From Planctomycetota bacterium (GTDB taxonomy: Bacteria > Planctomycetota > GCA-002687715 > CAIWVZ01): a stretch of 45,541 nt of DNA. Positions 1,585 to 21,105 of the stretch are shown here, piece after piece. A program made the position numbers and the translations under genes. Positions within the stretch are counted from its first letter, which is position 1. The number at the start of each line of letters is the position of its first letter. Where the stretch lies: positions 1-45,541 of the forward strand of contig JAFMJN010000002.1 in assembly GCA_017853435.1 (NCBI GenBank), read 5' to 3'. Below the pieces are notes generated by a model. The model had not been told where the DNA came from and did not search any database. It saw nothing but the letters and a program-made list of their open reading frames with translations.

Positions 1585-1621
1585 GCGTCTTCGCTTCGGT
1601 TCGCGTGGTAGAGTTCCGCCG

Positions 1622-2671: not shown

Positions 2672-2673
2672 CC

Positions 2674-3744: not shown

Positions 3745-4658
3745 CGCTCCACGACGTTCACGTCGTCGTGCTGAACTGGAACGGCTACGGAGAGACGGAA
3801 GCGTGCGTCGCGGGGGTGATGGACGTCGCTCCCGACGTACGAATCCACATCGTCGACAACGGTTCGGAAGGCGACGAGGCGGGGCGACTCGCGCGTCGAT
3901 TCCCGGACGCGCGGATCGAATCCGTCGGTTTCAACGCGGGATTCGCCGGGGGCGTGAACCGCGGTATCGACGCGGCCCTCGCCGAGGGCGCGCGATTCGT
4001 GTTCCTTTTGAACAACGACGCGCGGATCGATGCGGGAACGCTTCCCGCGCTCCTCGACGCCGCCCGTCGCAGGCCGGATGTCGGCGTGTTCGGTCCGAGA
4101 ATTTGGCGCGATCGCGGGGCGGGAGTCTTGTGGTGTTGCGGCGTCGCCTTCGGGTTCGGTCCGAATCTCGGACGTCTGCGGGGTTTCGATCGTCGCGGCG
4201 ACGGTCTGTTCCTCGAGGAAGATGCCCCGGATTCGTTGACGGGCTGCGGCCTTCTCGTGCGGCGTGAGGTCTTCGATCGGATCGGCACCCTCGACGAAGC
4301 CTATTTCGTCTATCTCGAAGATGCGGACTTTTGTCTGCGCGCGCGCGAGGCCGGTTTCGGACTGCTCTACGTTCCGGGGGCGTCGATGGAACACCCGGGT
4401 GGTTGGTCGACAGGTGGGGGATACTCGCCGGGACGCAAGTACCTCACCGCGCACGGAGCCGTCCGCTTTTTGAAGCGTCACGGCACGTGGTCTCTGTGGG
4501 CGTCGTGGGTCGTCTTCGACGTGGTGCTTTGGCCCCTGTTGTTTCTTTCCGCGGGCGTCAGGGGGCGCGGGCGGGCGGCGTGGGCCAAGGCCCGCGGGAC
4601 GCTCGACGGACTTCTCGGTCGCCCTCCGAAGCCCCCCGCGTTAAAACCGCGGGCATGA
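3741..4658 (+). CDS. Glycosyltransferase family 2 (rhamnosyltransferase-like subgroup)
   Basis: The track ORF 3714..4658 probably starts at GTG 3741 (GTGA overlap with the upstream stop). 'VHVVVLNWNGYGET...IVDNGSEGDE', 'NAGFAGGVNRGI' and 'LLNNDARID'. Hydrophobic C-terminus 'WASWVVFDVVLWPLLFLSAG'. Confidence 0.8.
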   Translation: MTLHDVHVVVLNWNGYGETEACVAGVMDVAPDVRIHIVDNGSEGDEAGRLARRFPDARIESVGFNAGFAGGVNRGIDAALAEGARFVFLLNNDARIDAGTLPALLDAARRRPDVGVFGPRIWRDRGAGVLWCCGVAFGFGPNLGRLRGFDRRGDGLFLEEDAPDSLTGCGLLVRREVFDRIGTLDEAYFVYLEDADFCLRAREAGFGLLYVPGASMEHPGGWSTGGGYSPGRKYLTAHGAVRFLKRHGTWSLWASWVVFDVVLWPLLFLSAGVRGRGRAAWAKARGTLDGLLGRPPKPPALKPRA

Positions 4659-5998: not shown

Positions 5999-5999
5999 C

Positions 6000-7379: not shown

Positions 7380-7404
7380 CGGTGCGGGGAGCGAGATGCG
7401 GTAA

Positions 7405-10400
7405 GTGAGAGCGGGAGAAGGGGTGGGGGCGAAGGGGAAGCGGAAGATCCTGCATGTCGTACACGGCTTTCCTCCGGAATGCCGTGGCGGGACGGAATCC
7501 GTGGTCGCTCGGGTCGCCGAGGCCCAAGCCGCGCGCGGGCACGCCGTCACGGTGCTCTTCGGGACGATGCAGGTCGGAGAGGCGACGACCCTCGAACGCG
7601 TGGACGGTCCGATAGCGGGAGTGACCCACCTGCGTCTACGAAAGTCCGGGCTCTTCGTCGATCAATGGGATCGATCGGACGACTCCGAAGCGCTCGATTT
7701 GATCGCACGGTCGGAAGCCGCCGACGCCGACGTCGTGCACGTCCATCAGTGGATTCGCCTGACGCGTCATTTGGTGCGCTGGGCGCGCTCGCTCGGAAAA
7801 ACCGTGTGCGTCACCCTTCACGACGCCACGGTGTCGTGTCCCATCGCGTTCCGCGTGCGCGAGGACGGACTCTGCCGCAAGGATCCTGGATCCTCGTCGT
7901 GTTTCGGTTGCGCGCCGACTCCGTTCGGGATGGACGAAACGACGTGTCGCGACGCGCTCGACGTCTTCGTCGCCGATATGCGCGCGGAAGTCGCCGCCGC
8001 GGATGCCGTCGTCGTCCCGACCCGCGCCCATGCGGCGTTTCTGGCTCCGTGGTTGCCCGCGGAAGTGCGGCCGATCGTGGTGGCGCACCCGTCGCTCGAG
8101 TCGGCGCCTCGCCGCGTGCATTCGTCGACCGTACCCGCCGACAGCCCCATCCGCGTCTTGCATTTCGGTCATCTGAACGACGTCAAGGGGGTTCCACTGC
8201 TCTACGAAGCGATGGGCCTCCTCGCGCCGTCGGTTCGTTCCGCGTTGCGCCTCGACGTTTACGGGACGGCGGCGGATCCACGGATGCGTGCGCGGCTCGA
8301 CGCTCTCAAGAGCGGATTGCCGATCTACGAGCACGGACCGTATGTGCCTTCCGAACTTGACGGCGATCGTCACGACGTCGTCGTGATCCCGTCTCGAGCT
8401 TCCGAATCGTGGAGCTTCGTCCTCGACGAAGCGTTCGCGATGAGCCTGCCCGCGATCGTCCCGGCGTGCGGGGCTCTCGAGGAACGCATCGGCGCCGCCG
8501 GCTTCGTTTATCCCCCCGATTCCGTCGAGGGGCTCGCGTCGATTCTCGAAATGCTCGTGCGTGACCGTTCGCAACTCGATCGCGCGCGCGCATCGATTCC
8601 CGGCGACCGCGGTGTCGAGACCCACGTCGATGCTCTCGACGTCGTCTACGGAGACGCGCGTCCCAAGGCGCCGATCGCCGAGCCGGGGCTTTGGGCGGGA
8701 CTCGAGCGACGCTCCCGCGCCGCGTTGCGACGTGCCTCGATGTCGATCGTCGAAGCACGAGGTCGCGTGGACGCGGAGATCGTCCGTTACGACGATTTGT
8801 TCGCGAATTTCAAAGCCGCGGAAGCGGGTGTCTCCGAAGCCCGTTCCGAAATCTCGCGCCTCGGTACGGTGCTCGACGGATTCAGGGAATCCGTCCGTCA
8901 GTACGCCGCGCGCTGCACGGAACTCGAAAAGTGGGTCGCGAGTCTGCGCGAAGGGACGGAAGACGGGGGGCGCTCCGTCGATCGGCTTCTCGAACTCGAA
9001 CGCACGTTGAATGGCGTGGAAGCCGCACTCGCGGATCGCGAGGGGGAACTCCGGATCGCGGAACGGCGTCTCGAATTCGAGACCGCGCGGGCAACCGAGT
9101 CCTCCGTCCGCGCGGAGGCCGAATCTCGCCGTGCCGAGACCGAAGTCTTCGCCCGCCATGACGTCGAAAGGACGCTCCACGCCGCCCTCGCGTCGACGGC
9201 GGATCTCGCCCGACGTTTGGTCCGTGTGGAGGCGGATGCGAGACTCGCGTCCGATGCCCTGCGCGTGGAGCGTGCGGCGCGTCGCGACGTCGGCGAACTC
9301 GTCGGCCACCTCGAAGGGGACCTCCGAGCGCTGCGTTCGGTGATCGCGAAACAGGAACGCGAAGTCGTCGAGCGCGCCGCGGACATCGAACTTCTCACGA
9401 CGTCGCAGCGCGCGTTGTCGGCGCGGCTCGAATCACTCGCTCGTGAGGCGATCGCGAAGGACGCGGATCTCGCTCGCGCTTTCCATCGCGAATCCGAATT
9501 GAAGGACGTTTTGGCGTTCTCGGAACGCCGACGGCGCGACGTTTCGGACGTTGTCGCGGCGGAGAGAGCGACGGCATCGAGTCTCCAGGCGCGCGTATCC
9601 GCCGACGCCGCACGCATCCGACACCTCGAGTCGGTCGTCCGAGAAACGAAGGCCGAGGCCGATGCGGCGCGCGCTCTGTACGACGGGCTGCGGGCCGAAA
9701 CGAACCACGAACGGGAACGCGTGATTCGTTCGGAAGAGATCCTCGGCGCCGCTTTCGATGGTGAACGTCTCGATCCGGAATCGGCGTCCGCCTGGGCGCG
9801 CAAACACGCCGAAGCGGTTGCGGAACTCGACGCCCTTCGACGCGCGATCGTCGAGGACCGGGGGGCGTCCGCGGCGCTGAAGGCCCGTGTTTCGACCACG
9901 TCGCGGCGTCCGAAGGTGTTGTTCGTCGTTCACGATTTTCTGCCGTATCACGCAGCGGGTTCGGAGATCTACACCTATCAGCTCGCGAAGGCGCTGTCGA
10001 AGCACGTCGACGTCCATTTGGCCTTCTGCGAAAATCGTCCCGAACGGCCGCAGTACGAGACGCGCGAAGGAACGTTCGACGGCCTCCCGTTCACGGAAGT
10101 CGTGCATCACGATGCGTTCCCGACGTTCGGCGCCACCTACGAAGATCCGGAAATGGATCGCGTCTTCGACGGGATTCTTCGCCGCGTACGCCCCGACGTC
10201 GTGCACGTGCAGCATCTCAAGTTCTGGGGGCTCGGTGTCCTCGGTCGAGCGCGGAAGGCGGGGTGCCGCGTCTTCTATACCCTTCACGAGTACATGGCGA
10301 TCTGTCCGCGAGACGGCCAGATGCGAAGGCCGGACGGCGAACGGTGCGAACTTCCCGTTCCGTCGACCTGCGCCGATTGCATCACGCACGTGGCGTTGTC

Positions 10401-11286
10401 GCGAAGTTCCGCGGGGCGTCTCGCAGGTTCGGTGTTGCGTCGCGCCGTCGAGGCGGCGCCCGACGCCTTGAAGGAGGTCGGTAATCGGGTCGCCCGTCGA
10501 TGGGCGATTCGTGGAGCGTCGCCCGGGTCGCATTCCGAGCGCGAAGCGGCGATTCGCAACCGTCTTTCGACCACGCAGGAGGCGTTTCGCGCGGTGGACA
10601 TGTTCTTCGCGCCGAGTCGGTTTCTTCGCGAACGATTCCTCGCCTCCGGCATCGTGCCGTCCGATCGGATCGTTTGGTCTCCCTACGGACAAGACGTCGA
10701 GCGGTTCCCGAAACATCCCAAAACCCCTTCGGAACGACTTCGCGTCGGCTACCTCGGCACCATTTCCTCCTACAAGGGGCTCGGCGTACTCATCGAGGCG
10801 CTCGAAGCGTTGTCCGCCTATCCCGTCGAAGGGCGCATTCACGGGGCCCTCGAAATTTTCCCCGACTACACGGCTCATTTGCGTGCGACGATCCGCAACC
10901 CGCGCATCGCTCTTCTCGGAAGGTTCGACAACCGCGACGTCGCGCGACTGCTCGCCGACATCGACGTGCTCGTCGTCCCGAGTCTGTGGTGGGAGAATGC
11001 TCCCTTGACCATCCACGAAGCCTTTCTTTCGAAGACGCCCGTGGTCACCTCGGACATCGGGGGCATGAAGGAATTGGTTCAGCATGGGGTGAACGGACTG
11101 CACTTCAAAGCGGGAGACGCTGCGGATCTCGCTTCGGTCCTTCGAAGCTTGGCGCTCGATCGCGCCTCGCTGCGGACCCTGGAGCCCGATCCGTCGATCG
11201 TGCGTGATATCCGTGAAGATGCACTTTCGATGCTCGCTCGGTACTCGGCCGCGGTGTCCGCATCGTCCGAGAGAGCCTTCGCATGA
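7405..11286 (+). CDS. Giant bifunctional glycosyltransferase: GT4 module - ~400-aa coiled coil - GT4 module
   Basis: Uninterrupted 1293-aa ORF (GTG 7405; GTG 7423 is an alternative start). The N-terminal module has 'KILHVVHGFPPECRGGTES' and EX7E 'ESWSFVLDE'. The C-terminal module has 'PKVLFVVHDFLPYHAAGSEIYTYQLAKAL', EX7E 'ENAPLTIHE' and 'GGMKELVQHGVNGLHFKAGD'. The central part (nt ~8700-9900) is A/R/E/L/D-rich, heptad-like, and holds a single proline. Confidence 0.85.
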   Translation: MRAGEGVGAKGKRKILHVVHGFPPECRGGTESVVARVAEAQAARGHAVTVLFGTMQVGEATTLERVDGPIAGVTHLRLRKSGLFVDQWDRSDDSEALDLIARSEAADADVVHVHQWIRLTRHLVRWARSLGKTVCVTLHDATVSCPIAFRVREDGLCRKDPGSSSCFGCAPTPFGMDETTCRDALDVFVADMRAEVAAADAVVVPTRAHAAFLAPWLPAEVRPIVVAHPSLESAPRRVHSSTVPADSPIRVLHFGHLNDVKGVPLLYEAMGLLAPSVRSALRLDVYGTAADPRMRARLDALKSGLPIYEHGPYVPSELDGDRHDVVVIPSRASESWSFVLDEAFAMSLPAIVPACGALEERIGAAGFVYPPDSVEGLASILEMLVRDRSQLDRARASIPGDRGVETHVDALDVVYGDARPKAPIAEPGLWAGLERRSRAALRRASMSIVEARGRVDAEIVRYDDLFANFKAAEAGVSEARSEISRLGTVLDGFRESVRQYAARCTELEKWVASLREGTEDGGRSVDRLLELERTLNGVEAALADREGELRIAERRLEFETARATESSVRAEAESRRAETEVFARHDVERTLHAALASTADLARRLVRVEADARLASDALRVERAARRDVGELVGHLEGDLRALRSVIAKQEREVVERAADIELLTTSQRALSARLESLAREAIAKDADLARAFHRESELKDVLAFSERRRRDVSDVVAAERATASSLQARVSADAARIRHLESVVRETKAEADAARALYDGLRAETNHERERVIRSEEILGAAFDGERLDPESASAWARKHAEAVAELDALRRAIVEDRGASAALKARVSTTSRRPKVLFVVHDFLPYHAAGSEIYTYQLAKALSKHVDVHLAFCENRPERPQYETREGTFDGLPFTEVVHHDAFPTFGATYEDPEMDRVFDGILRRVRPDVVHVQHLKFWGLGVLGRARKAGCRVFYTLHEYMAICPRDGQMRRPDGERCELPVPSTCADCITHVALSRSSAGRLAGSVLRRAVEAAPDALKEVGNRVARRWAIRGASPGSHSEREAAIRNRLSTTQEAFRAVDMFFAPSRFLRERFLASGIVPSDRIVWSPYGQDVERFPKHPKTPSERLRVGYLGTISSYKGLGVLIEALEALSAYPVEGRIHGALEIFPDYTAHLRATIRNPRIALLGRFDNRDVARLLADIDVLVVPSLWWENAPLTIHEAFLSKTPVVTSDIGGMKELVQHGVNGLHFKAGDAADLASVLRSLALDRASLRTLEPDPSIVRDIREDALSMLARYSAAVSASSERAFA

Positions 11287-13544
11287 AGGTTCTCATGCTG
11301 ACGATGGGATTGCCGCCCGCCTCTCGCGGTGGGACGGAAGTTCACGTCATGGGGCTCGCTCGGGCTCTGCGTCGACGCGGAGATCGGGTGGTGTTGGCCT
11401 GTCGCGAATCGGCGGAAGGACGGACGCCTTTCTCGGTCCGTCGGGAAGCGCTCGACGGTTTCGATGTGTATCGGATGGCCTACGACTTCCATGACGCGAC
11501 GTCGTATCGCGCCATTCATGAACATCCTTCGATCGACGCCGCTCTCGAGGGGGTGGTGGATGCCGTCGCGCCCGACGTCGTCCATATCCATCACTTCAGT
11601 TGCCTGTCGACGTCGTTCCTCGATCGACTCCATGCGCGCCGTATCCCGACGGTCGTGACGCTGCACGATCACTGGCTCCCGTGTCCGCGGGGACAGCGAA
11701 TCACCCCCGAACTCGAAATTTGTGAAACTCTCGATCGAAACCGCTGCGCCACTTGTCTCGGCGCCTTGTGGCCGCATTTCGACGTCGGGCCCAAGGTGCT
11801 CGAAGAGGCCGACACGCGTCTGTTGCGGCGTTTGAATCGTGTCGATCTCCTTATCGCACCTTCCGAGTTTCACGCGCGACGCATGATCGAATGGGGACTC
11901 GACCCCGCGTTGGTGCGCGTCGTCGTGCACGGACTCGAATCGGACGGCTACGAAGCCGTCAGGCGACGCCGGTCGGGCGTTCGCGTCGTCGGCTTTCTGG
12001 GCAGCGTCATTCCGTCGAAGGGGGTTCACGTCCTGATCGAGGCGTGGAAGCGCCTCGGGCGAACCGACATCGAACTCGTCGTTCACGGCGAAGCACCGAC
12101 GTTCCACGGGCGAGACGGGTACGTCGACGGTCTCCGTGCCGCGTGCGACGGTCTTCGGGTGCGGTTCGCGGGAGCCTACGAACCGGCGGATGTCCCGCGC
12201 CTTCTGCGGGGTATCGACGTCCTCGTCGTGCCTCCCGTGTGGTGGGAGTCGTTCTGCCTCACGGCGCGCGAAGCGTTTCTTGCCGGCGTTCCGGTGGTCG
12301 CCTCCGGACACGGGGCGTTGCTCGAAGCCTTCGAGGACGGGAACGGCGGACGGTTCTTTCCCCCCGGCGATGTGGAGGCGTTGGCGGCGACACTCGCGGA
12401 TCTCATCGACCACCCCGAGCGTCACGAGGCTCTCGCGGCTTCCGTTCCCGCCGTACGAAGCATCGCGGAGTGCGCCGACGAGACCTCGCGTCTTTACGCG
12501 TCCGTCGCGGCGGCGCGTCGTCATCGAGAGGCGCTCGATGGAAGCGACGCGCTTGGACTGCTCGGCCCCGACGCGACCGCGACGCCGTACTGCACGGTGT
12601 TCATTCCGACGTGGAACGGGTTGCCCGAACTATCGGGAGTCTTGGCGAAACTCGTCGTCCAGCGCACGCCGTTCCCGTTCGAGATCCTCGTGATCGATTC
12701 CGGTTCGACCGACGGAACTCTCGAACTTCTGGCCGAATATCCGTCGATTCGCGTGATCCGCATCCCGAATTCCGAGTTCAATCACGGTACGACGCGCAAT
12801 CGCGGCGTCGCCGAGGCACGCGGTGAGATCGTCGCCTTGTTGACGCAGGATGCGGAGCCCGTCGACGATCGATGGCTCGCCCGTCTCGTCGGGAACTTTT
12901 CCGATCCCCGAGTCGCGGGGGTCTATTGCTCGCAGCGACCGCGTCCCGACTGCGACCCTTTCGCGCGGGATCGGTTGAAGGACTGGACCGCGGAGTCCGG
13001 GCCACCCGTCGTGCAGGGGCCGGTGACGCCCGAAGCGTTCGAAAGCATGACGCCGTGGGAGCGGTATCTGGTGTCGCGCTTCGACGACGTCGCGAGTTGC
13101 GTGAGGAAATCGGCCATGGTCGAGGTTCCTTACGCGCGTCGTCAGTTCGGAGAAGACGTCGAGTGGGGGAAACGTGCCGTCCTCGCCGGATGGAAGATCG
13201 TGAACGACCCCGGCTCCGTGGTGATTCACTCGCACACGTCTCCGGTGCTCTACGAATTCAAGCGCGTTTATCTCGACCATCAAAATCTTCACGAGCTCTT
13301 CGGTCTGCACACGTTGCCGCGCTGGACCGACGTTCCTTTGTGTGCGGTGCGTTACTTCCTTCATCTGCTCCCCGTCGTTTGGCGCGACGACCGGGACGTC
13401 GCCTTCAAACTTTGGTGGACGTTGAAATTGCCGCTGTACGCGTTCACCCAAAATCTCGCGCAATGGCTCGGCGCGAAGTCCGTCGCGTGGAAGCGCGACG
13501 GTCGGCATCGTTGGGTGGACGCCTTGCTTCGGAAATCGGTGTGA
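11283..13544 (+). CDS. Bifunctional glycosyltransferase: N-terminal GT4 fused to C-terminal GT2
   Basis: 753-aa ORF with an ATGA overlap to the upstream gene. GT4 part: 'MKVLMLTMGLPPASRGGTEVHVMGLARAL', EX7E 'ESFCLTARE'. GT2 part from nt ~12585: 'YCTVFIPTWNGLPEL...ILVIDSGSTDGT', 'FNHGTTRNRG', 'LLTQDAEP'. Confidence 0.85.
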   Translation: MKVLMLTMGLPPASRGGTEVHVMGLARALRRRGDRVVLACRESAEGRTPFSVRREALDGFDVYRMAYDFHDATSYRAIHEHPSIDAALEGVVDAVAPDVVHIHHFSCLSTSFLDRLHARRIPTVVTLHDHWLPCPRGQRITPELEICETLDRNRCATCLGALWPHFDVGPKVLEEADTRLLRRLNRVDLLIAPSEFHARRMIEWGLDPALVRVVVHGLESDGYEAVRRRRSGVRVVGFLGSVIPSKGVHVLIEAWKRLGRTDIELVVHGEAPTFHGRDGYVDGLRAACDGLRVRFAGAYEPADVPRLLRGIDVLVVPPVWWESFCLTAREAFLAGVPVVASGHGALLEAFEDGNGGRFFPPGDVEALAATLADLIDHPERHEALAASVPAVRSIAECADETSRLYASVAAARRHREALDGSDALGLLGPDATATPYCTVFIPTWNGLPELSGVLAKLVVQRTPFPFEILVIDSGSTDGTLELLAEYPSIRVIRIPNSEFNHGTTRNRGVAEARGEIVALLTQDAEPVDDRWLARLVGNFSDPRVAGVYCSQRPRPDCDPFARDRLKDWTAESGPPVVQGPVTPEAFESMTPWERYLVSRFDDVASCVRKSAMVEVPYARRQFGEDVEWGKRAVLAGWKIVNDPGSVVIHSHTSPVLYEFKRVYLDHQNLHELFGLHTLPRWTDVPLCAVRYFLHLLPVVWRDDRDVAFKLWWTLKLPLYAFTQNLAQWLGAKSVAWKRDGRHRWVDALLRKSV

Positions 13545-14821
13545 GGCCGCGCGCCCTTTTTGTCGGACACGTCCCGCCCGACGCCCGTGGCGGTGGGGTC
13601 GGCAATCACATGGGCGAAGCGGCCCGCGCGGTTTCGGATCTTTTCGAGATCTCATGGTTCACGCGCGGGTCCGATGGTTCGGGTGATGATCTCGCGGTTT
13701 CGGAGGAGACCTTGTTCGAGGGTGGTCGCGCTTTCGTGTTTGCCCATCGCGGCGTGCGGGGGACGTCGTTTCGAGAACGGACGCGATTCGAGCCCGCGGA
13801 GGCGGCGTTCGATCGCGTGCTCCGCTCCGTCCGTCCCGATGTCGTTCATATTCATCATTGGTCGTGGCTGTCGTCCGGCATGGCCGCGGCGGCCCGCGCC
13901 TTCGGGGCCCGCGTCGTCCTTACGCTGCACGACCATGTCGCGACGTGCCCGCGGGGGAGGCGCTATCGACCGGACGACGTCGTTTGCGAGACGGTCGTGC
14001 CCGAGACGTGTGCGGCGTGCGTCGTTCCGCGGTGGATCGAAGCGGTGCGGAATCCCGATTCGAAGGCGCGCGCGATCGTCCGCGCCTTGTTCGGTCGAAG
14101 CGAAGATCTTCGCCTTCTCGCGGAGCGCGAACGTCGGATCTTGGACATGTTGGCGTCGGCCGATGCGATCGTTTTTCCGTCGGAGGACGCGCGTCGACGT
14201 TGTGCCGAGCGGTTCGGATCCCTTTCCGATCGGATGCGGGTGATTCCCCCCGTTTGGAAGCGCCCCCTTTCGGCTCCGCCTCGGCGTCCCGACGGAGCGG
14301 TGTTTCGCGTCGGACTTCTCGGCGATCCCGCCTTCGCGAAGGGGATCGTTCCCGCGGCACGCGCGATCGCTGGATGCGAGCGTCCGACGTCGCTGGACGT
14401 TTGGGGAGAGCCGAGCGCGCACGTCGCGGGGGTGCTCTCCGCCGCCGCGCCGGGCCACGTTCGGTGGCGGGGTCGCTACACCCCCGATACGCTCGGCGAC
14501 GTCATGGCGACGCTCGACGCGGTCGTGGTTCCGTCGCTTTGGCCCGAGACCTTCGGCATCGTCGCGCGTGAAGCGGCCGCCTACGGGCGTCCGGTGATCG
14601 TGAGCGCGATCGGGGGACTCGCCGACGCCGTGGTGCGTGGCGTGGCCGTCGGCGTCCCCCCCGGCGATGTCCATGCGCTGCGTGCGGCGATCGACGCGCT
14701 TCCTTCGGGTTCCGATCCGATCGCCGTCCCGTCCGGGGTCGATGCGGAATGGTGCGAAGGTCGCGACGGGCTTCGGGCTCTCTACGCGGACCTCGTCGTC
14801 GGTGGTAAGACGGGGGCATGA
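13541..14821 (+). CDS. Glycosyltransferase family 4, Cys4-insert paralog 5
   Basis: The track ORF 12872..14821 is trimmed to GTG 13541 (GTGA overlap). 'RALFVGHVPPDARGGGVGNHMGEAARAV', 'VVHIHHWSW', 'TLHDHVATC-x12-C-x7-CAAC', EX7E 'ETFGIVARE'. Confidence 0.8.
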   Translation: MRPRALFVGHVPPDARGGGVGNHMGEAARAVSDLFEISWFTRGSDGSGDDLAVSEETLFEGGRAFVFAHRGVRGTSFRERTRFEPAEAAFDRVLRSVRPDVVHIHHWSWLSSGMAAAARAFGARVVLTLHDHVATCPRGRRYRPDDVVCETVVPETCAACVVPRWIEAVRNPDSKARAIVRALFGRSEDLRLLAERERRILDMLASADAIVFPSEDARRRCAERFGSLSDRMRVIPPVWKRPLSAPPRRPDGAVFRVGLLGDPAFAKGIVPAARAIAGCERPTSLDVWGEPSAHVAGVLSAAAPGHVRWRGRYTPDTLGDVMATLDAVVVPSLWPETFGIVAREAAAYGRPVIVSAIGGLADAVVRGVAVGVPPGDVHALRAAIDALPSGSDPIAVPSGVDAEWCEGRDGLRALYADLVVGGKTGA

Positions 14822-16917
14822 TCTCCCGCTTCCTGTGCGTGCTTGCGTTGCTCGTCGCCGCGACGTCCGGGCAGGGAAGGGTCATCCTGATCGGGGTCGA
14901 CGGTCTCGATCCCGAATTCACGACGCGCTGGACCGACGACGGCACGCTTCCCGAACTCGCCGCGCTCCGGCGCAATGGAGGACTCGCGCCGCTTCTTCCC
15001 ACCAATCCCGCTCAGTCGCCGGTTTCGTGGGCGTCGCTCATCACGGGCCGCAATCCCGGTGAAACGGGCATCTTCGACTTTCTCGCGCGTCGCGCCAAGA
15101 ACGGGGAGATCACGGCGGAACTCGCCTTGGTCGATCGCGTACGACTTCCGCTGAGGGCGTGGGTCGTCGGCGTGCTGATGGTGGTCATTCTCGCGTTGTC
15201 CGGGTTCGTGGCGTACCGCAGGCTTCGAGCGGGAGCCGTCCTTCGAAGGGCGCCCTTCGTCGGCACGTTGCTCGGGGCCGCGTGTTTCGTCGGGGCGCTC
15301 GGAGCGTGGTTGCCCGCGTGGGTCGAGGTGCCCCGGAACGCGCGCGGCGGCGAGACACTGTTCGAGCGTCTCGACCGTGCGGGCATCGGAACGGTCAACG
15401 TGTTCGCTCCGATGTCGTTCCCCGCGCCCGATCTCAAGAACGGCTGCGTGCTCTGCGGACTCGGCGTCCCGGACGTGATGGGAACTCCGGGCACGGCGGT
15501 GGTCTACCGCGAAGAGCCGATCGCGGGGGGCGTGAGGATCACTCCGACGGGATGTCGGGAAGTGCAGATGACGGAGGTCGGCGGCGTTCTCGCCGGACCG
15601 AAGGTCGAAGGACCGCGTCGCCCCGACGGATCGCGGCCGCAAGTCCCTCTGAAAGTGATTCCCGCGCGTGGACGCAACGCGCTGATCTTCGAACTCGACT
15701 CCGGACTGTCGATCGAAGTGGCGAAGGGCGGCTGGACTCCGTGGATGGATGTCCCGATTCCTCTCGGGCCGCTCGGAGTGTTGTCGTCGTTGGCGCGCTT
15801 CCGTGTCCTTGAGGCGGGCGCCCGCACGATCATCTATCAGGAACCGTCGTGCTTCGATCCTCGGCGACCGTCTCCGGTCGCGCCCATCGTTTCGCCGAAG
15901 TCGTTCGGATCCGAGTTGGCGACCGACGGCCGTCCGTTCGGCACTCTCGGTTGGGCGTGTGCGACGAATCCGCTCCAGGACGAGATCATCGACGAGGAGA
16001 CCTTCCTCACGCAGACGCTCGATATCGATCGGGAGCGCGAGGAACTCGTGATGCGAGCCTTGGGTCGCAGCGGTTGGAAGATGTTTTTCTGCGTGTTGTC
16101 GACGCCGGATCGCGTCCAGCACCTTTTCATGCGCGATCACGACCCCGCGCATCCTCGTCACGATCCGACGGCGATCGCTCGACGCGGAGATCCGATCAAG
16201 GAGTCGTATCGCCGTATCGACGCCCTCGTCGGTCGCATCCGTCGCGAAGTCGCTTCGCGCGACGACTTGATCGTCGTTTTCTCCGATCACGGCATCGCCC
16301 CGTTCCGCCATCAAGTCAATCTCAATCGTTGGCTCGCCGAAGAGGGTTATCTCGTCGGATCCGAAGCGGGTTCCGAACGCACCATCGAAACGTCGATCGG
16401 CGGCTCCGCGTTGTTCCCCGGAATCGACTGGACGCGCACGCGTGCGTATTCGATGGGGCTCGGGAAGATCTGGCTCAATCTGCAAGGTCGCGAGCCTCGC
16501 GGCTCGGTCGATCCCGCGAAGCGTCGCGCCTTGCTCGAAGAAATTCGCACGAAGCTCCTCGCACTCGAGCATGACGGAAAGCGGATCGTGCGGTCGGTCG
16601 GCGTCCGCGAAGACCTCTATTCCGGAGATCGCGTCGAGGAGTCCGCGGATCTCGTCGTCGGATTCGAGCGCGGCTATCGGATTTCGTGGCAGGCGACGCT
16701 CGGCTCGCTCGACGAGCCCGTGATCATTCCCAATCGTCGACTTTGGTCGGGTGACCATTGCTCGGTGGACCCCGCTTTGGTGCCGGGAGTCTTCGTCGCA
16801 TCGCGTCCTTTCGCCGAAAACGAGGTCGGCGTCCTCGATCTCTTCCCGACGGTCGAAGCATGGTTCCGACTTCCCCGTACGATCGGGCTCTCGGGGCGGG
16901 TGCTCGCGTGGAAGTGA
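14818..16917 (+). CDS. Alkaline-phosphatase-superfamily enzyme (type I phosphodiesterase/nucleotide pyrophosphatase-like), membrane tethered
   Basis: 699-aa ORF with an ATGA overlap. Signal-like N-terminus 'MISRFLCVLALLVAATSGQG'. Metal-ligand and nucleophile-type motifs: 'LIGVDGLDPE', 'NPAQSPVSWASLITG', 'VFSDHGIAPF', 'WSGDHCSVD'. Two hydrophobic helices are inserted at nt ~15150-15325. Confidence 0.75.
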   Translation: MISRFLCVLALLVAATSGQGRVILIGVDGLDPEFTTRWTDDGTLPELAALRRNGGLAPLLPTNPAQSPVSWASLITGRNPGETGIFDFLARRAKNGEITAELALVDRVRLPLRAWVVGVLMVVILALSGFVAYRRLRAGAVLRRAPFVGTLLGAACFVGALGAWLPAWVEVPRNARGGETLFERLDRAGIGTVNVFAPMSFPAPDLKNGCVLCGLGVPDVMGTPGTAVVYREEPIAGGVRITPTGCREVQMTEVGGVLAGPKVEGPRRPDGSRPQVPLKVIPARGRNALIFELDSGLSIEVAKGGWTPWMDVPIPLGPLGVLSSLARFRVLEAGARTIIYQEPSCFDPRRPSPVAPIVSPKSFGSELATDGRPFGTLGWACATNPLQDEIIDEETFLTQTLDIDREREELVMRALGRSGWKMFFCVLSTPDRVQHLFMRDHDPAHPRHDPTAIARRGDPIKESYRRIDALVGRIRREVASRDDLIVVFSDHGIAPFRHQVNLNRWLAEEGYLVGSEAGSERTIETSIGGSALFPGIDWTRTRAYSMGLGKIWLNLQGREPRGSVDPAKRRALLEEIRTKLLALEHDGKRIVRSVGVREDLYSGDRVEESADLVVGFERGYRISWQATLGSLDEPVIIPNRRLWSGDHCSVDPALVPGVFVASRPFAENEVGVLDLFPTVEAWFRLPRTIGLSGRVLAWK

Positions 16918-17450
16918 CGTCGCGCGCCGAACCCTTGCGCCGGGTCGTCCACGTCGCGGTGGGCCTTCCCGCGTTCTTCCTCGATCGAAGCACGGTCACG
17001 TTCTTCATCGGCGCCTGCGTCGCGGGGGCCGTGTTCAACGCCGTGGTGCTTCGCCTCGTGCCGATCTTCCGCGAGGTCCGTGACGTGCCGCGCGGGTCGG
17101 CCGGAACCGTGCTCTATCCCGCGACACTCGCGGTGCTGCTCGTTCTCTTTCGCGACCGTCCGGAACTCGTGAAGGTCGGATGGATCATGTTGGCCTTCGG
17201 TGACGGCTTGGTTCCGTTGTTCGCGAGGCTCGGGGGTCCACGTTGGCCGACGGTTGAAGGTAAGCGTGTGATCCCTTCCGTTTTCGCCGCCGCGTGTGCC
17301 GCCCTCGTCGCATGGCCCGCGACGGATTGGAAACTTGCCTTCGCGGGTGCCGCCGCGGCCGTCTTCGCCGACGCGATCCCGCGGGTGGACGACAACATCG
17401 CGTGGCCCGTTCTCGGCGTCCTCGGTGCGTGGGGGGGCTACGCCGCGTGA
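16914..17450 (+). CDS. Small polytopic membrane protein, polyprenol (dolichol/phytol) kinase / CTP-transferase-1-like
   Basis: The track ORF 16758..17450 is trimmed to GTG 16914 (GTGA overlap). About 6 hydrophobic helices. 'MLAFGDGLVPLFARLGG...VEGK' and 'ADAIPRVDDNIAWPVLG' resemble the GDxxAxxxG and DN..P motifs of the COG0170 dolichol/phytol kinase family. The match is degenerate, so the function call is tentative. Confidence 0.5.
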   Translation: MTSRAEPLRRVVHVAVGLPAFFLDRSTVTFFIGACVAGAVFNAVVLRLVPIFREVRDVPRGSAGTVLYPATLAVLLVLFRDRPELVKVGWIMLAFGDGLVPLFARLGGPRWPTVEGKRVIPSVFAAACAALVAWPATDWKLAFAGAAAAVFADAIPRVDDNIAWPVLGVLGAWGGYAA

Positions 17451-18151
17451 GCGACCCTTTTTTTCACGAACCCCTTCGTGCGGCACTCGTCGGGGCGGCG
17501 CTCGTCGTCCCGGTGGCCGTCGCGCGTGCCGCGACGGTCGGTGGGTGTGCGGCCGGGGCCGTCGCCGCCGCGTGGCTCGCGTGGGCGGGGGGGCGTCCCG
17601 CGCTCGTCGCTTTCGCCGCCTTGGTGGTGGTCGGCACGTGGACGTCCCGACTCGGTCGCGAGCGCAAGCGTCGTGAGGGCGTCGCGCAGTCCGACGGGGG
17701 GCGTCGTGCGGCCCGCCATGTCCTCGCGAACGCCGGACCCGCGCTCCTCGCCGTCGCGCTCGGCGAAGGAGGCTACGTCGAACGGGACGTCGCGATCGCC
17801 GCGGCGTGCGGTGCCTTCGCGGGCAACCTCGCGGACACGGCTTCGGGCGAATTGGGAATGCTGTTCCCGCGGCCGCCGCGACTTCTGCTTTTCGGCCCGA
17901 TCGTGCGTCGGGGAACGAACGGCGGCATGACGTGGCCCGGATTGTGGTGTGGGGTTGTTTCGGGAAGCCTCGTCGCGGCGTTGAACGCCGACGTGGTTTC
18001 CGTGATTCCGATATGCGTCGCCGCCCTCGTCGGCACGTTGACCGACAGCCTTCTCGGAGCGTGTATCGAAGGCAAGTTCGGAATCGGCAACGAAACGGTG
18101 AATTTCACGTCCGGGGCCGTCGCCGCTTTCTGCGCCGGAGCCTGCGTATGA
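17447..18151 (+). CDS. DUF92 / TMEM19 / VTE6-like integral membrane protein (putative polyprenyl-phosphate kinase family)
   Basis: The track ORF 17294..18151 is trimmed to GTG 17447 (GTGA overlap). Polytopic protein. 'AFAGNLADTASGELGMLF' matches the DUF92 'ADT.aSE.G' signature. Also 'GGMTWPG' and a C-terminal 'NFTSGAVAA'. Confidence 0.6.
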   Translation: MSDPFFHEPLRAALVGAALVVPVAVARAATVGGCAAGAVAAAWLAWAGGRPALVAFAALVVVGTWTSRLGRERKRREGVAQSDGGRRAARHVLANAGPALLAVALGEGGYVERDVAIAAACGAFAGNLADTASGELGMLFPRPPRLLLFGPIVRRGTNGGMTWPGLWCGVVSGSLVAALNADVVSVIPICVAALVGTLTDSLLGACIEGKFGIGNETVNFTSGAVAAFCAGACV

Positions 18152-19086
18152 AAGCGCGATTCGCCTGTTGGTGGGAGGCGACGCGACCGTTCACGCTGGC
18201 GCCTCCCGCGATCGGGATGGTGTCGGGTGGTCTGAGCGCGCTCGGTGCGAATCCGTCGCTCTCCGCCGACGGACGATTTTGGACCTCCGTCGGCATCGGA
18301 GCATTGATGGCCGCCGCGCTCAACGCGGCGAGCAACGTCCTGAATCAGATCCACGATCTCGCGCTCGATCGCGTCAACAAACCGGAACGGCCGATTCCTT
18401 CGGGACGACTGTCCGTCGGCGAGGCCTACGGACTGGCCGTCGCGTGTTACGCGATCGCTCTCGTCCTCGCGTTCATTCCGCGGCCTTCGGGATTCCCGGA
18501 GACCGGCGTCATCGCGTTGGTCACGACGGTGCTCACGTGGGTCTATTCCGCTCCGCCCGTGCGCGCACGCAATTCGTGGTGGCTCGGACCTCTCGTCATC
18601 GCCGTTCCACGCGGCTTGCTTCTCAAGGTCGCCGGATGGAGTTGTATCGCGCCCGTCGGGTCGGATCGCGAGCCTTGGATTTTGGGCGCGGTGTTTTTCG
18701 TCTACGTCATCGGTGCCGCGCCCGTGAAGGATTTCGCCGATCTCGAAGGGGATCGACGCGGGGGGGCGTCGTCGCTTCCCATTCGGTTCGGACCGAAGCG
18801 TGCCGCCGACATCGTCGCGGCGTTCCTCCTCCTCCCCGGTTTGCTTCTCGCGGTGTTGCCCCGCATCGTCGTCGACGGACGTCCGCTGCTCGGCGTCTCG
18901 GCGACGGGATCGGCGATCGCGGGCCTGGTCATCTTCCTCCACGGAGCGCGGGTCGGAGCGATGATGCGTCGCGATCCCGACGCGCTCGTGGCCGGAGGGG
19001 GCACCGATGCATGGCGCCACATGTATCTCTTGATGATGGAACTGCAGATCGCCGCCGCGGGTCTGTACTTCCTGCATCACCTCTGA
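18148..19086 (+). CDS. UbiA-superfamily prenyltransferase (DGGGP-synthase/chlorophyll-synthase-like motif type)
   Basis: The track ORF 17806..19086 is trimmed to ATG 18148 (ATGA overlap). First Asp-rich motif 'NVLNQIHDLALDRVNKPERPIPSGR' (NxxxDxxxD...RPIPSG). Second motif 'VKDFADLEGDRRGG' (DxxDxxxD). Polytopic membrane protein. Confidence 0.85.
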   Translation: MKARFACWWEATRPFTLAPPAIGMVSGGLSALGANPSLSADGRFWTSVGIGALMAAALNAASNVLNQIHDLALDRVNKPERPIPSGRLSVGEAYGLAVACYAIALVLAFIPRPSGFPETGVIALVTTVLTWVYSAPPVRARNSWWLGPLVIAVPRGLLLKVAGWSCIAPVGSDREPWILGAVFFVYVIGAAPVKDFADLEGDRRGGASSLPIRFGPKRAADIVAAFLLLPGLLLAVLPRIVVDGRPLLGVSATGSAIAGLVIFLHGARVGAMMRRDPDALVAGGGTDAWRHMYLLMMELQIAAAGLYFLHHL

Positions 19087-20252
19087 GCCGTCACCCGTCG
19101 GAACGGTGCGCAGACGGCGGTTCTCCCGTCCGTTGCGACGATCGTCCAAACGAGGGCTCCGTCATGCGGCAGAAGATCTCCGGATTCCCAACGGAATTCC
19201 CGTTCTCCCGACGGATCGCGCCACGAAGGGCGCCACGCGATGCGATAGGTCCCGTCCTTCTCGCGTCGTCGTTGGACGACGTCGTTCCCGAGGCGACGTT
19301 CGACGATGCGATGGCGTCCGCGGGCGTCGGTCGCGACGCCGACGAAGGCGAGAGTCGCTTCCGCGAAAGCGGCTCCGAGGCGGGCTTCGAAAGTCGGTTC
19401 GTCGTCCGGGACGCGGAGCGCCAAGGCCGATGCGGGTGGATTTACGAGGGCGACGTCCTCGCCGACGCGCAGCGTCGTTCGCACGCGGGCTTCGATCGGT
19501 CCCGACGGCGACCCGTCCGAGGACATGCCGCCATAGGTGACGAGGGTGGCGACTCGGGCGTCGCACAGTTTTCGCGGATCGTCCGTCGCGCGCATCGGAA
19601 ACGCGTTGACGAGCGCCGCGACGTCGCGTTCGACGCCGTCCCGTTCGGGAACCACGAGCAGAAGTGCTTCGGGAACGCGGGTGACGGCTTCGGAGAGGGT
19701 CCCCACGTCGCGGGCGCGCGCATCGCGGCGCGGGGCCGCCTCGCGGGTCCGCGACAGCGTGTGCGGAATCCAAAGCACCGCGAGCAGGGCGGCGGCGACC
19801 AATGGAAGTCGGCGGAACCGAGAATGCGTGAGAGCGGCACCGACGACGGCGACCGCGACGGCGGTGCCGACGGCGACGAGACCTCCGAGTGCGGATGGGG
19901 TTCCGTCCGCGAGCGGCGTCGCCGCGTATCGGACGTGGGTCGCCGCGGCGAAACTCGAAGGATGGACGGCGATGACCGTGACGACGGACACGGTGGTCGT
20001 CGCGGATCGGGTGAGCACCGCGACGGGGAGGGCGATCGCCATTATGAGGCAGGCCACCCCCACGATCCCGACGAGGTGGAGGGCCGTCGGGGGGGTGTTC
20101 GGGCCGACGACCAGCCCCAAGGCCGCTGCGGAGGCGAGTTCCTCCGGGAGGGCGGGCAGGCTCCGGGCGGCGAGGGCGTAGCCGAGCGCCGCGAGGCACG
20201 TCGCGGCGAATGCCGCGAGGACGGGAACCTTGGGGGAGCGCGGAGCCGACAT
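19077..20252 (-). CDS. Hypothetical membrane protein: N-terminal multi-TM region plus ~200-aa C-terminal domain of unknown function
   Basis: The track ORF 19077..20393 is trimmed to ATG 20252 ('MSAPRSPKVPVLAAFAATCLAALGYALA'). Several hydrophobic helices. Third codon positions are mostly G/C in this frame. I recognise no family motif. The 3' end overlaps the UbiA gene end by 10 nt. Confidence 0.55.
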   Translation of the reverse strand: MSAPRSPKVPVLAAFAATCLAALGYALAARSLPALPEELASAAALGLVVGPNTPPTALHLVGIVGVACLIMAIALPVAVLTRSATTTVSVVTVIAVHPSSFAAATHVRYAATPLADGTPSALGGLVAVGTAVAVAVVGAALTHSRFRRLPLVAAALLAVLWIPHTLSRTREAAPRRDARARDVGTLSEAVTRVPEALLLVVPERDGVERDVAALVNAFPMRATDDPRKLCDARVATLVTYGGMSSDGSPSGPIEARVRTTLRVGEDVALVNPPASALALRVPDDEPTFEARLGAAFAEATLAFVGVATDARGRHRIVERRLGNDVVQRRREKDGTYRIAWRPSWRDPSGEREFRWESGDLLPHDGALVWTIVATDGRTAVCAPFRRVTAQR

Positions 20253-20391
20253 CCCCGTAACTATCGGCCACGCCCGCCGCCGTGGGAAAACCGGTCTCCG
20301 GAGGGGGCTTTCGGCGACGCCCGTCCGATCCCCTGCGGGAAAGCGTGCCGGTTCGTACCATGAGTCGACGCGGAGGCGCCCCAAAACACCC

Positions 20392-21105
20392 ATGTTCTTC
20401 GATCCCCTCTACCTGTTGCTCGTCGGTCCCGCGATGCTGTTCTCGCTGCTCGCGAGTTTCTGGGTCAAGTCGTCCTTCAACCGTTGGAGGGACGTCGGTA
20501 CCCGCGCCGGTTTGACGGGCGCACGCGTCGCGCAACTGATTCTCGCCCGCAACGGGATTCACGACGTCACGGTCGAGCCCTCCGAAGGATTCCTTTCGGA
20601 TCACTACGACCCGACGGCGAAAGCACTGCGCCTCTCGCCGGATGTCTACAACGGGCGATCGATCGCCTCTCTCGGAGTCGCCGCGCACGAGGTCGGCCAC
20701 GCGATCCAACACGCTCAGGGCTACAGCCCGTTGAAGTTCCGCTCGGCGTTGGTGCCCCTCGCTCAGTTCGGTTCGAACTTGAGTTGGATCTTCCTCATGG
20801 TGGGCATGCTGCTCGGTGCGGCGTCACCGCTCGGTCGCGGCGTGCTTCTCCTCGGCATCGGGCTGTTCAGCTTCGCCGTCTTGTTCTCGCTGATCACGCT
20901 GCCCGTCGAATTCGACGCGAGCCGCCGGGCGTTGGTGACGCTCGAGGAAGGCGCGTATCTTGACGCGGAGGAACTCGGCGGAGCCCGCAAGGTGCTTCGC
21001 GCGGCGGCGGCGACCTACGTCGCGGCGGCGGTCGCGGCCTTGGCCCAGCTCCTCTACTTCCTGTTGCGATCCGGATTGCTCGGAGGCGGGCGGCGGGAAG
21101 AGTAG
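20392..21105 (+). CDS. Putative neutral zinc metallopeptidase (Zn_peptidase_2 / YugP-like), membrane bound
   Basis: The track ORF 20230..21105 is trimmed to ATG 20392 ('MFFDPLYLLLVGPAMLFSL'). 'LSDHYDPTAKALRLS', HExxH 'AHEVGHAIQH', C-terminal TM helices. Confidence 0.85.
   Translation: MFFDPLYLLLVGPAMLFSLLASFWVKSSFNRWRDVGTRAGLTGARVAQLILARNGIHDVTVEPSEGFLSDHYDPTAKALRLSPDVYNGRSIASLGVAAHEVGHAIQHAQGYSPLKFRSALVPLAQFGSNLSWIFLMVGMLLGAASPLGRGVLLLGIGLFSFAVLFSLITLPVEFDASRRALVTLEEGAYLDAEELGGARKVLRAAAATYVAAAVAALAQLLYFLLRSGLLGGGRREE

Follow-up and report, generated by a model that had tools for sequence, protein, structure and literature searches.

A conserved gene block of a polyprenol-kinase-like protein, a DUF92 protein and an unnamed UbiA-clade prenyltransferase at the end of a planctomycete glycan operon

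Introduction

Why would a bacterial operon for glycan synthesis end in three membrane proteins whose nearest named families belong to isoprenoid metabolism? The question is raised by a stretch of 45,541 nucleotides from a Planctomycetota bacterium (GenBank assembly GCA_017853435.1, contig JAFMJN010000002.1, positions 1 to 45,541), called the window below, which has a G+C content of ~66% and carries on its + strand a co-directional glycan operon of roughly 19 kb (positions 20-19086). The 3' end of this operon is formed by three genes, here called the triad:

16908/16914-17450, + strand: P1, a polytopic membrane protein of 178-180 amino acids with a divergent polyprenol-kinase-like domain of the Sec59/VTE5 type (COG0170, PF01148 superfamily)
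17447-18151, + strand: membrane protein of the DUF92/COG1836 (VTE6) family (PF01940), a putative polyprenyl-phosphate kinase
18148-19086, + strand: intramembrane prenyltransferase of the UbiA superfamily (PF01040), in an unnamed clade nearest ChlG, DGGGPS and HPT

In plants and cyanobacteria, VTE5, a CTP-dependent prenol kinase, followed by VTE6, a prenyl-phosphate kinase, converts phytol to phytyl diphosphate for use by UbiA-family enzymes (PMC9782597, PMC10849223). An initial annotation, made by a model from the letters of this DNA, had proposed by analogy that the triad salvages an isoprenoid alcohol and transfers it to an acceptor. We followed up this proposal computationally, and the explanation that we favor, with confidence that is about evenly balanced, is that the triad works as one conserved unit, in which an activated isoprenoid is made and then consumed in the order P1, DUF92, UbiA, with an envelope lipid or glycolipid anchor as its probable product.

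Results

The triad is tightly packed and recurs as a block across phyla

All three open reading frames lie on the + strand as annotated, and every motif that had been quoted for them is present, namely AFGDGLVPLFARLGG and DDNIAWP in P1, ADTASGELG in the DUF92 protein, and PERPIPSG and KDFADLEGD in the UbiA protein. Each triad junction is a 4-nt overlap of a start codon with the preceding stop codon, and these overlaps can be read directly in the sequence: GTGA at 16914-16917, where the stop codon of the upstream PF01663 gene (TGA, 16915-16917) overlaps a GTG at 16914; GTGA at 17447-17450, where the GTG start of the DUF92 gene overlaps the stop of P1; and ATGA at 18148-18151, where the ATG start of the UbiA gene overlaps the DUF92 stop. 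The UbiA gene itself ends in TGA at 19084-19086. The sole correction to this part of the initial annotation concerns the start of P1, which is more likely the GTG at 16908, two codons 5' of 16914, because three close homologs are 180 amino acids long and begin with MEVT.

One genome per GTDB species was scanned with patterns specific to the UbiA clade, which yielded at least 585 loci and put the clade in no fewer than 585 species-level genomes. The best 80 loci were analyzed; they belong to Acidobacteriota (mostly Vicinamibacterales and Thermoanaerobaculia), Planctomycetota, Eisenbacteria, Gemmatimonadales, Glassbacteria, Binatia, Nitrospinota, Omnitrophota, Acidimicrobiia and Wallbacteria. 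These loci were translated in six frames and searched with hidden Markov models (HMMs) of P1, DUF92 and UbiA, and the 75 that extend at least 1.5 kb 5' of UbiA, spanning Acidobacteriota, Planctomycetota, Gemmatimonadota, Glassbacteria and Acidimicrobiia, are the basis of the counts that follow. A DUF92 gene lies on the same strand less than 500 bp 5' of UbiA at 56 of the 75 loci and P1 within 1.5 kb at 55, and P1 and DUF92 are fused to each other at 43. The gene order of the window is repeated in relatives with 50-84% UbiA identity as well as across phyla, and the arrangement is far from chance. Since fusion and adjacency recur across those phyla, we regard the triad as a widespread module.

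The link between P1 and DUF92 proved stronger than had been claimed, with 72 of the 149 best P1 relatives carrying a C-terminal DUF92 domain in proteins of ~450 amino acids and with the pair found directly 5' of UbiA in most genomes. The window has the split form of P1 and DUF92, and most bacterial relatives have the fused form, an example being the fusion gene at 8622-9998 of locus L014. Gene fusion together with adjacency across phyla is strong evidence that P1, DUF92 and UbiA belong to one pathway. The order can vary, as at loci L086 and L088, where UbiA is followed by a holo-acyl carrier protein synthase (AcpS), a P1-like gene, an HpnA-like short-chain dehydrogenase/reductase (SDR) and DUF92, and where the P1 motifs are more canonical (GDxxAxxxG...RSLEGS...DN).

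P1 is a very divergent relative of polyprenol kinases

P1 has only five close relatives. A profile of six homologs reached 1431 proteins at E <= 0.001 in an exhaustive HMMER search, and among the 149 best of these relatives 8 match PF01148 weakly. A broader family profile (A3), run in a search of 5.8 billion sequences, retrieved three proteins that score above the PF01148 gathering score (P0317, 8e-25; P0318, 6e-24; P0364, 4e-5), a protein that NCBI names a 'diacylglycerol/polyprenol kinase family protein' (P0342, E 1.4e-10) and more than 10 proteins named 'dolichol kinase' by JGI, all of these kinase names being automatic annotations. An NCBIfam scan of the kinase-named relatives turned up no polyprenol-kinase model in that library, and the sole weak match was to CdsA; P0317 weakly matches E. 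coli-type CdsA at 5.6e-5. Profile-level, transitive homology and automatic names thereby support placing P1, as a highly diverged protein, within the CdsA/dolichol-kinase superfamily. The kinase-like motifs pointed out in the initial annotation have thus gained profile homology to kinase-named and PF01148 proteins, but a direct Pfam or NCBIfam match is lacking.

At the residue level, P1 keeps the family invariants R9, H13, Y68, P69, W90, G96, D97, K117, D160 and N161. In the C-terminal half, where the family has a GD..A...G motif, a Lys and a DN/DDN motif, P1 keeps G96, D97, K117, D160 and N161, which vary little or not at all among family members, and its subclade has V100 and A104 in place of the consensus A and G. 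Two metal-binding Asp residues described in earlier work correspond to the Asp residues of the GD and DN-type motifs of the polyprenol-kinase family (PMC5898192). An AlphaFold2 model of P1 (pLDDT 85) has 8 helices.

P1 and DUF92 appear to be distant homologs of each other in an hhalign comparison (probability 46%, E 2e-4), in which GDG is placed over ADT and ES over ES. This weak alignment agrees with the work of Makarova, Galperin and Koonin, who by HHpred found DUF92 to be a distant member of PF01148 and noted that some archaeal DUF92 proteins have an N-terminal Sec59-like domain (PMC5898192).

The second protein belongs to the DUF92/VTE6 family

The assignment of the second protein to DUF92/COG1836, the VTE6 family, is unambiguous and bears out the earlier reading of its signature: it matches PF01940 with 117.1 bits against a cut-off of 27.5 (E 1.1e-33, profile positions 4-211 of 251). 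It retains K74, R87, D130, T131, E135, G137, G156, G159 and N219, all at alignment positions with 96% or higher conservation among 50 DUF92 domains. Against TIGR00297, a hypothetical equivalog, it scores 88.1 bits, below the cut-off of 205.85, and a fused homolog from Acidobacteriota also stays under that cut-off with 172.8 bits. COG1836 was tied to phytol-phosphate metabolism already in 2011 (PMC3223725), and the one DUF92 protein known to have prenyl-monophosphate kinase activity is Arabidopsis VTE6 (cited in PMC9782597 and PMC10849223), by analogy with which the window protein may be such a kinase.

The UbiA protein represents an unnamed branch near ChlG, DGGGPS and HPT

The third protein matches PF01040 with 114.7 bits against 34.2 (E 5.7e-33). 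It was placed within the superfamily by ranking its scores against curated HMMs and PDB sequences. All specific models score it far under their cut-offs: the ChlG model NF005742 gives 110.6 bits against 313, the uncharacterized 'PRK12884 prenyltransferase' 101 against 269, BchG 98.1 against 212.3 (TIGR01476), TIGR02056, a further model of the ChlG/BchG group, 72.7 against 436, DGGGPS 84.7 against 296 (NF009521) and 66 against 353 (NF009522), HPT 80 against 226 and EboC (NF035940) 55.9 against 250, and the UbiA, MenA, MqnP and CyoE models give 20-30 bits against cut-offs of 210-430. Matches of similar magnitude are seen among 41 clade members, whose best E values are 7.9e-39 for NF005742, 1.4e-35 for TIGR01476 and 2e-25 for TIGR02056; the best E value of any member to any curated model is 5.4e-40, and equivalog cut-offs are apparently reached by none of the 41. 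When a profile of these members (A4) was searched against PDB sequences, ChlG ranked first (9sau, 1.4e-28), followed by DGGGPS (6m31, 1.7e-26), AfUbiA (9e-10), ApUbiA (3e-5) and UBIAD1 (2e-3), and the window protein alone gave 2.9e-17 to ChlG 9sau and 1.3e-16 to DGGGPS 6m31.

The clade has invariant signatures of its own. N66-Q67-x-x-D70-x-x-x-D74 and K194-D195-x-x-D198-x-x-G201-D202 are the same in all 41 members, as are the motifs NxxNQxxDxxxDRxNKPxRPxPSG, YSxPPxR, PRGxLLKVxGW and KDFxDxxGD. Because all curated scores lie far under the cut-offs and the clade carries these signatures, the window protein is best classified by sequence as a member of an unnamed branch that lies in the ChlG/DGGGPS/HPT portion of the superfamily. 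It does not cluster with quinone or (bacterio)chlorophyll synthases; the initial annotation had compared its motifs to those of DGGGP synthase and chlorophyll synthase. DPPR synthase is absent from the list of 25 NCBIfam families for the window protein (27 match at E <= 0.001 and 32 at E <= 0.1), from the 25 families that clade members match most frequently and from the PDB matches of the clade at E <= 10, the DPPR synthase content of these libraries being unconfirmed. Genes for GGGPS and glycerol-1-phosphate dehydrogenase, the partner enzymes of DGGGPS, occur in none of the annotated neighborhoods. In an 'uncultured planctomycete' metagenome-assembled genome, one contig (L006) carries a UbiA fragment that is 95% identical to the window protein, and at the acidobacterial locus L005 a second, shorter UbiA paralog of 283 amino acids (11583-12434) is located 0.6 kb 3' of the clade member.

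Neighboring genes and the glycan context of the module

The genes upstream of the triad had been called glycosyltransferases (GTs), and Pfam scans assign them to GT2 and GT4 as follows, together with the remaining features mentioned in the text:

20-14821, + strand: in order, GT2, PIG-L deacetylase, GT2, GT2, GT4, radical-SAM/SPASM protein, double GT4, GT4-GT2 fusion, GT4
838-1584: the PIG-L deacetylase
4331-5998 and 7405-14821: the GT4 genes
5967-7379, + strand: the radical-SAM/SPASM protein (PF04055 and PF13186), in mid-operon
7405-11286, + strand: the double GT4, 1293 amino acids, two complete Glyco_transf_4 and Glycos_transf_1 modules in tandem
14818-16917, + strand: PF01663 protein (type I phosphodiesterase/nucleotide pyrophosphatase, alkaline-phosphatase superfamily), 699 amino acids (E 1.3e-32)
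19077-20393, - strand: convergent open reading frame of 438 amino acids with at least 4 hydrophobic segments and no Pfam match, overlapping the UbiA stop by 10 nt
L086 9932-10315 and L088 9898-10281: AcpS, between UbiA and the P1-like gene

Synteny between the module and GT genes holds in part. Homologs of the GT4 and GT4-GT2 genes accompany the module in Planctomycetota only (L003, L004, L008, L009, L012 and L087), where synteny with it extends over the last three or four GT genes; the double GT4 is kept at 1284-1398 amino acids in L003, L004 and L087, and in the window the GT4-GT2 fusion (753 amino acids) lies directly 3' of it. In other phyla, by contrast, the surroundings differ. The acidobacterial locus L014 has accD, folC, an LptD-like gene, RmlB and an SDR as neighbors, and in another lineage the module sits in a lipopolysaccharide (LPS) or exopolysaccharide (EPS) cluster, with GT9 heptosyltransferases, GT2, Bac_transf, a GT-C-like protein, Wza and Wzz around L086 and L088, where UbiA adjoins a DAO-type FAD oxidoreductase, an aldo-keto reductase and the GT-C-like protein, which has 516-524 amino acids and a weak STT3 match. 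The link to envelope glycans therefore recurs in three unrelated forms and not as one fixed operon.

Two kinds of SDR gene were considered as further parts of the module. RmlB-like SDR genes are recurrent in 57 loci, mostly of Acidobacteriota, but an RmlB-type 'epimerase' was rejected as a component and is only weak context, because its recurrence resembles lineage synteny with the LPS genes accD, folC, the LptD-like gene and RmlB itself. Extended SDRs stand beside the module at L087 (9933-10955) and L088 (10949-11998), and their nearest models are of lipid type (HpnA, SdmB and OleD); these HpnA-like SDRs are a better candidate for a fourth component than the RmlB type, and the window has none. 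A partial PF01370 domain is fused to a P1 domain in protein P0237, and a PF01370/GDP_Man_Dehyd fragment lies just 5' of the P1 gene in L002 (8-319).

The PF01663 protein has hydrophobic segments at residues 7-25, 114-132 and 145-163, that is, a signal-like N terminus and a two-helix hairpin (about residues 114-163, loop RRLRAGAVLRR) inserted in the alkaline-phosphatase-type domain. With the positive-inside rule applied to the hairpin loop, the catalytic domain probably faces the periplasm. PF01663 homologs are found near the UbiA clade at 14 of the 75 loci. They lie directly 5' of UbiA in three Eisenbacteria loci (L040, L043 and L082) and one of Binatia (L059), none of which has a kinase gene in the sequence at hand (L040 and L043 being short), and 3' of the module at a Gemmatimonadales locus, and a single protein (P0186) fuses PF01663 to P1. 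The PF01663 protein, which the initial annotation had passed over, thus probably belongs to the same functional neighborhood as the triad.

Several further observations concern the rest of the window. The mid-operon position is unusual for a SPASM enzyme; L008 too has a homolog 5' of its double GT4. Long open reading frames overlap on both strands in the stretch that separates the second GT2 gene from the third (2389-3399 on the - strand, 2404-3741 on the + strand), and one + frame within 2404-3741 is weakly similar to the GT2 genes of the window, of which it may be a degraded or mis-framed copy. Unannotated open reading frames of 391-393 amino acids occupy the position of the convergent gene in the close relatives L001 and L003. 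The remainder of the window (20-45 kb) holds housekeeping genes only and none for isoprenoid metabolism.

Discussion

Our results lead us to propose the following route. P1, as a diverged Sec59/VTE5-type, CTP-dependent polyprenol kinase, would phosphorylate a free isoprenoid alcohol to the prenyl phosphate, and the DUF92 protein, acting as VTE6 does, would add the second phosphate to give the prenyl diphosphate. The UbiA protein, with its two Asp-rich motifs of the ChlG/DGGGPS type, would then transfer the prenyl group from this donor to an oxygen nucleophile of an acceptor; its closest solved or curated relatives, ChlG, DGGGPS and HPT, all work with a prenyl diphosphate and with an acceptor that is an O- or C-nucleophile. 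The product would most likely be a prenylated envelope lipid or glycolipid anchor, made in the planctomycete together with a glycan from the upstream GT2, GT4 and PIG-L enzymes and then processed by the membrane-anchored, probably periplasm-facing PF01663 protein as a phospho-hydrolase or phospho-transferase. Both the plant and cyanobacterial precedent given above and the prediction that archaeal DUF92 proteins and their Sec59-like N-terminal partner are kinases of isoprenoid metabolism (PMC5898192) are in line with the first two steps. Our data establish the family memberships, the retention of family-invariant residues, the gene fusion and the adjacency across phyla, from which both kinase activities, the order of the steps, the prenyl diphosphate donor, the acceptor and the tie to the glycan are inferred.

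A number of observations speak against this proposal. P1 (16914-17450) gave no match in Pfam or NCBIfam at E <= 0.1, and four residues set its subclade apart from the consensus of the wider family (A to V100, G to A104, W to T113 and E to D153). A Foldseek search of the P1 model, an all-helical membrane protein, against the PDB returned a best E value of 1.3 with CdsA and CarS absent, which for a protein of this kind tells little and is no argument against homology, and the P1 family profile found in PDB sequences only a spurious match to cytochrome b561 (E 0.41). Since kinases and cytidylyltransferases share one superfamily, sequence cannot settle the chemistry of P1 and DUF92. Neither kinase lies within 10 kb of UbiA at 16 of the 75 loci, some of which have a PF01663 gene alone beside UbiA, and the kinases are therefore not obligatory neighbors of UbiA; the synteny with GT4 genes is confined to one phylum. 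Moreover, a non-phototroph has no evident source of free prenol. On this last point, the adjacent lipid-type SDRs and PF01663 genes suggest either an obligatory free-alcohol stage, in which a prenyl compound is dephosphorylated, modified and re-activated, or a recycling loop.

The comparison with known systems shows both how conventional the proposed chemistry is and where the module departs from precedent. Phytol salvage (VTE5, VTE6, then HPT/VTE2 or ChlG) employs the same three families in the same logical order; in contrast, the hosts of the module are non-phototrophic with no obvious source of phytol, P1 is too diverged for any curated model, the UbiA clade is under every ChlG and HPT cut-off, and the genes are adjacent or fused and lie in envelope-glycan contexts. 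Archaeal fusions of a Sec59-like domain with DUF92 (arCOG02245), for example Mbar_A3310, have an equal two-domain architecture, dolichol-kinase-like at the N terminus and DUF92 at the C terminus, and the 2015 prediction of a kinase in isoprenoid metabolism matches ours; their reported conserved context is uppS (PMC5898192), whereas the bacterial module is accompanied by a UbiA clade of its own and in many cases by PF01663 or SDR genes. The ebo cluster shows a similar pairing of a non-quinone UbiA protein (EboC) with a PF01663 protein (EboF), whose prenylated carrier or anchor is thought to act at the periplasm (PMC5133447, PMC6282210). However, the window protein is not EboC by its score, the ebo cluster is without kinases, homologs of EboA, B, D and E (TatD, sugar-phosphate cyclase, TIM barrel) are absent from the window, and the PF01663 protein matches no EboF model. 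DGGGPS and ChlG, the nearest solved structures and curated models, have the same type of motifs (NxxxDxxxD...RPxPSG and KDxxDxxGD), but the clade scores at roughly a third of the equivalog cut-offs, its first motif (NQxxDxxxD) has an invariant Gln in place of the ChlG Asp, PRGxLLKVxGW is its own, and neither GGGPS nor chlorophyll genes are nearby. The Rv3806c pathway likewise places a UbiA-family enzyme, with a phosphatase and oxidoreductases, in the making of a cell-envelope glycan, but specific similarity was not detected among the listed NCBIfam and PDB matches, the associated enzymes are non-homologous, and the two kinases are without a counterpart there.

This last system underlies an alternative that we consider unlikely, in which the UbiA protein is DPPR-synthase-like and transfers a phospho-sugar to a polyprenyl monophosphate, in the way that Rv3806c employs phosphoribosyl pyrophosphate. 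The prenyl phosphate would come from P1 acting on a prenol or from the PF01663 protein acting on a prenyl diphosphate, and the lipid-linked sugar, once dephosphorylated or epimerized, would serve periplasmic GT-C enzymes as donor. A supply of prenyl phosphate by a kinase or a phosphatase would fit the kinase-less Eisenbacteria and Binatia loci, in which PF01663 adjoins UbiA, and the UbiA genes of L086 and L088 stand beside a DAO-type oxidoreductase, an aldo-keto reductase, a GT-C-like protein and Bac_transf, recalling the UbiA, oxidoreductase and GT-C arrangement of arabinan synthesis. An equivalent suggestion has been made for EboC and EboF (PMC5133447). Yet no DPPR-synthase model is among the families listed for the window protein or its clade, ChlG and DGGGPS score about 1e-28 and 2e-26 against the clade profile, the DAO-type and aldo-keto reductase genes lack homology to DprE1 and DprE2 and come from one lineage only, and there would be no role for DUF92 as a second kinase that is fused to the first in most genomes. 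We give a similarly small share of our confidence to the idea that the module recycles a carrier, with the periplasmic PF01663 protein releasing or transferring a glycan from a polyprenyl carrier, which would be left as free prenol or prenyl phosphate, P1 and DUF92 re-phosphorylating this carrier, and UbiA making or modifying the carrier instead of a final anchor. Polyprenol kinases recycle carriers in eukaryotes (dolichol kinase) and in Gram-positive bacteria, which favors such a role here, and so do the glycan, LPS or EPS contexts of the module, the PF01663-P1 fusion, and the signal-like N terminus and positively charged hairpin loop of the PF01663 protein, which fit a periplasmic catalytic domain at the membrane surface. 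Against it, a phosphodiesterase would be unable to release the prenyl ether or ester formed by a ChlG/DGGGPS-type enzyme, 61 of the 75 loci have no PF01663 homolog within 10 kb, and the single fusion could be a gene-calling artifact.

A third possibility, which we hold to be very unlikely, is modeled on archaeal phospholipids: UbiA would prenylate a phosphorylated alcohol as DGGGPS does, and P1 or DUF92 would afterwards act as a CdsA/CarS-type cytidylyltransferase that yields a CDP-activated isoprenoid lipid to which a head group can be attached. Membership of both P1 and DUF92 in the cytidylyltransferase superfamily (PMC5898192), the weak CdsA match of P0317 and the nearly equal closeness of UbiA to DGGGPS and ChlG are compatible with this scheme; however, the named relatives of P1 are kinases, as is VTE6, the only characterized DUF92 member (PMC9782597), and genes for GGGPS/PcrB, glycerol-1-phosphate dehydrogenase or a CDP-alcohol phosphatidyltransferase were found in no annotated neighborhood. 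Finally, we see next to no chance that the UbiA protein is an ordinary prenyltransferase of the quinone, chlorophyll or tocopherol type whose terminal place in a glycan operon is accidental. Automatic JGI annotations do call clade members '4-hydroxybenzoate polyprenyltransferase' and in one case 'chlorophyll/bacteriochlorophyll a synthase', but the quinone and heme models give 20-30 bits against 210-430, the ChlG and BchG models 98-110 against 212-313, and the clade carries its own invariant motifs. The hosts of the module (Planctomycetota, Vicinamibacterales and others) are, we take it, non-phototrophs, and score cut-offs and host biology together rule out a quinone or chlorophyll role.

Within the preferred explanation, a prenylated product made by P1, DUF92 and UbiA, a more specific version can be imagined for the planctomycete. 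The operon combines GT4 proteins, a PIG-L-family de-N-acetylase and a PF01663 enzyme. Synthesis of the glycosylphosphatidylinositol (GPI) anchor relies on the GT4, PIG-L and PF01663 families (PIG-A, PIG-L and PIG-N/O/G), and MshA/MshB and BshA/BshB employ the GT4 and PIG-L families. By analogy, the combination suggests addition of N-acetylglucosamine followed by deacetylation on a lipid or small-molecule acceptor. It is tempting to speculate that the module and the upstream GT4, PIG-L and PF01663 genes build a new class of bacterial isoprenoid-anchored glycolipid, a counterpart of GPI or of archaeal glucosaminyl-archaetidylinositol, with an ether- or ester-linked prenyl anchor and a glucosamine-containing glycan that is decorated at the periplasmic face. 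Such a pathway might include an obligatory free-alcohol stage, perhaps with modification by an HpnA-like SDR, before re-activation by the two kinases, and the kinase-kinase-UbiA core might produce prenyl lipids of a related kind in hundreds of soil and sediment bacteria, Acidobacteriota and Gemmatimonadota among them. We regard this extended scheme as unlikely.

The initial annotation had taken the coupling of kinase-type isoprenoid salvage to a glycan operon to be undescribed in bacteria, which is true in part: a 2015 study had already predicted the kinase pair, in its fused form too, for archaea (PMC5898192), but the dedicated UbiA partner is apparently undescribed. We found no literature on a DUF92-UbiA or dolichol-kinase-UbiA module in bacteria or in glycan operons, subscription journals being outside our coverage, and the coupling of a dedicated UbiA clade to a kinase pair across bacterial phyla appears not to have been described. 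The novelty thus concerns the module, its distribution and its probable product, the chemistry being conventional. To our knowledge, very few enzymes of the route from prenol to prenyl phosphate to prenyl diphosphate have been identified in any organism, and we know of DUF92/COG1836 outside plants and cyanobacteria from computational prediction only.

Our findings describe a tight module of three genes, reduced to two by the kinase fusion, that occurs in several hundred species-level genomes at least, from abundant and poorly cultured phyla such as Acidobacteriota, Planctomycetota, Gemmatimonadota and Eisenbacteria, and that is coupled to a UbiA clade outside the reach of every curated model. 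They offer a testable hypothesis for three uncharacterized membrane-protein families together, one that points to a prenylated envelope lipid. A role confined to recycling a carrier lipid would, even so, make the module the first two-step system for polyprenol salvage to be defined genetically in these bacteria. Should the product be an ether- or ester-linked isoprenoid lipid or a glycolipid anchor, the module would bear on how far isoprenoid membrane lipids reach into the Bacteria and on how planctomycete and acidobacterial envelopes are constructed.

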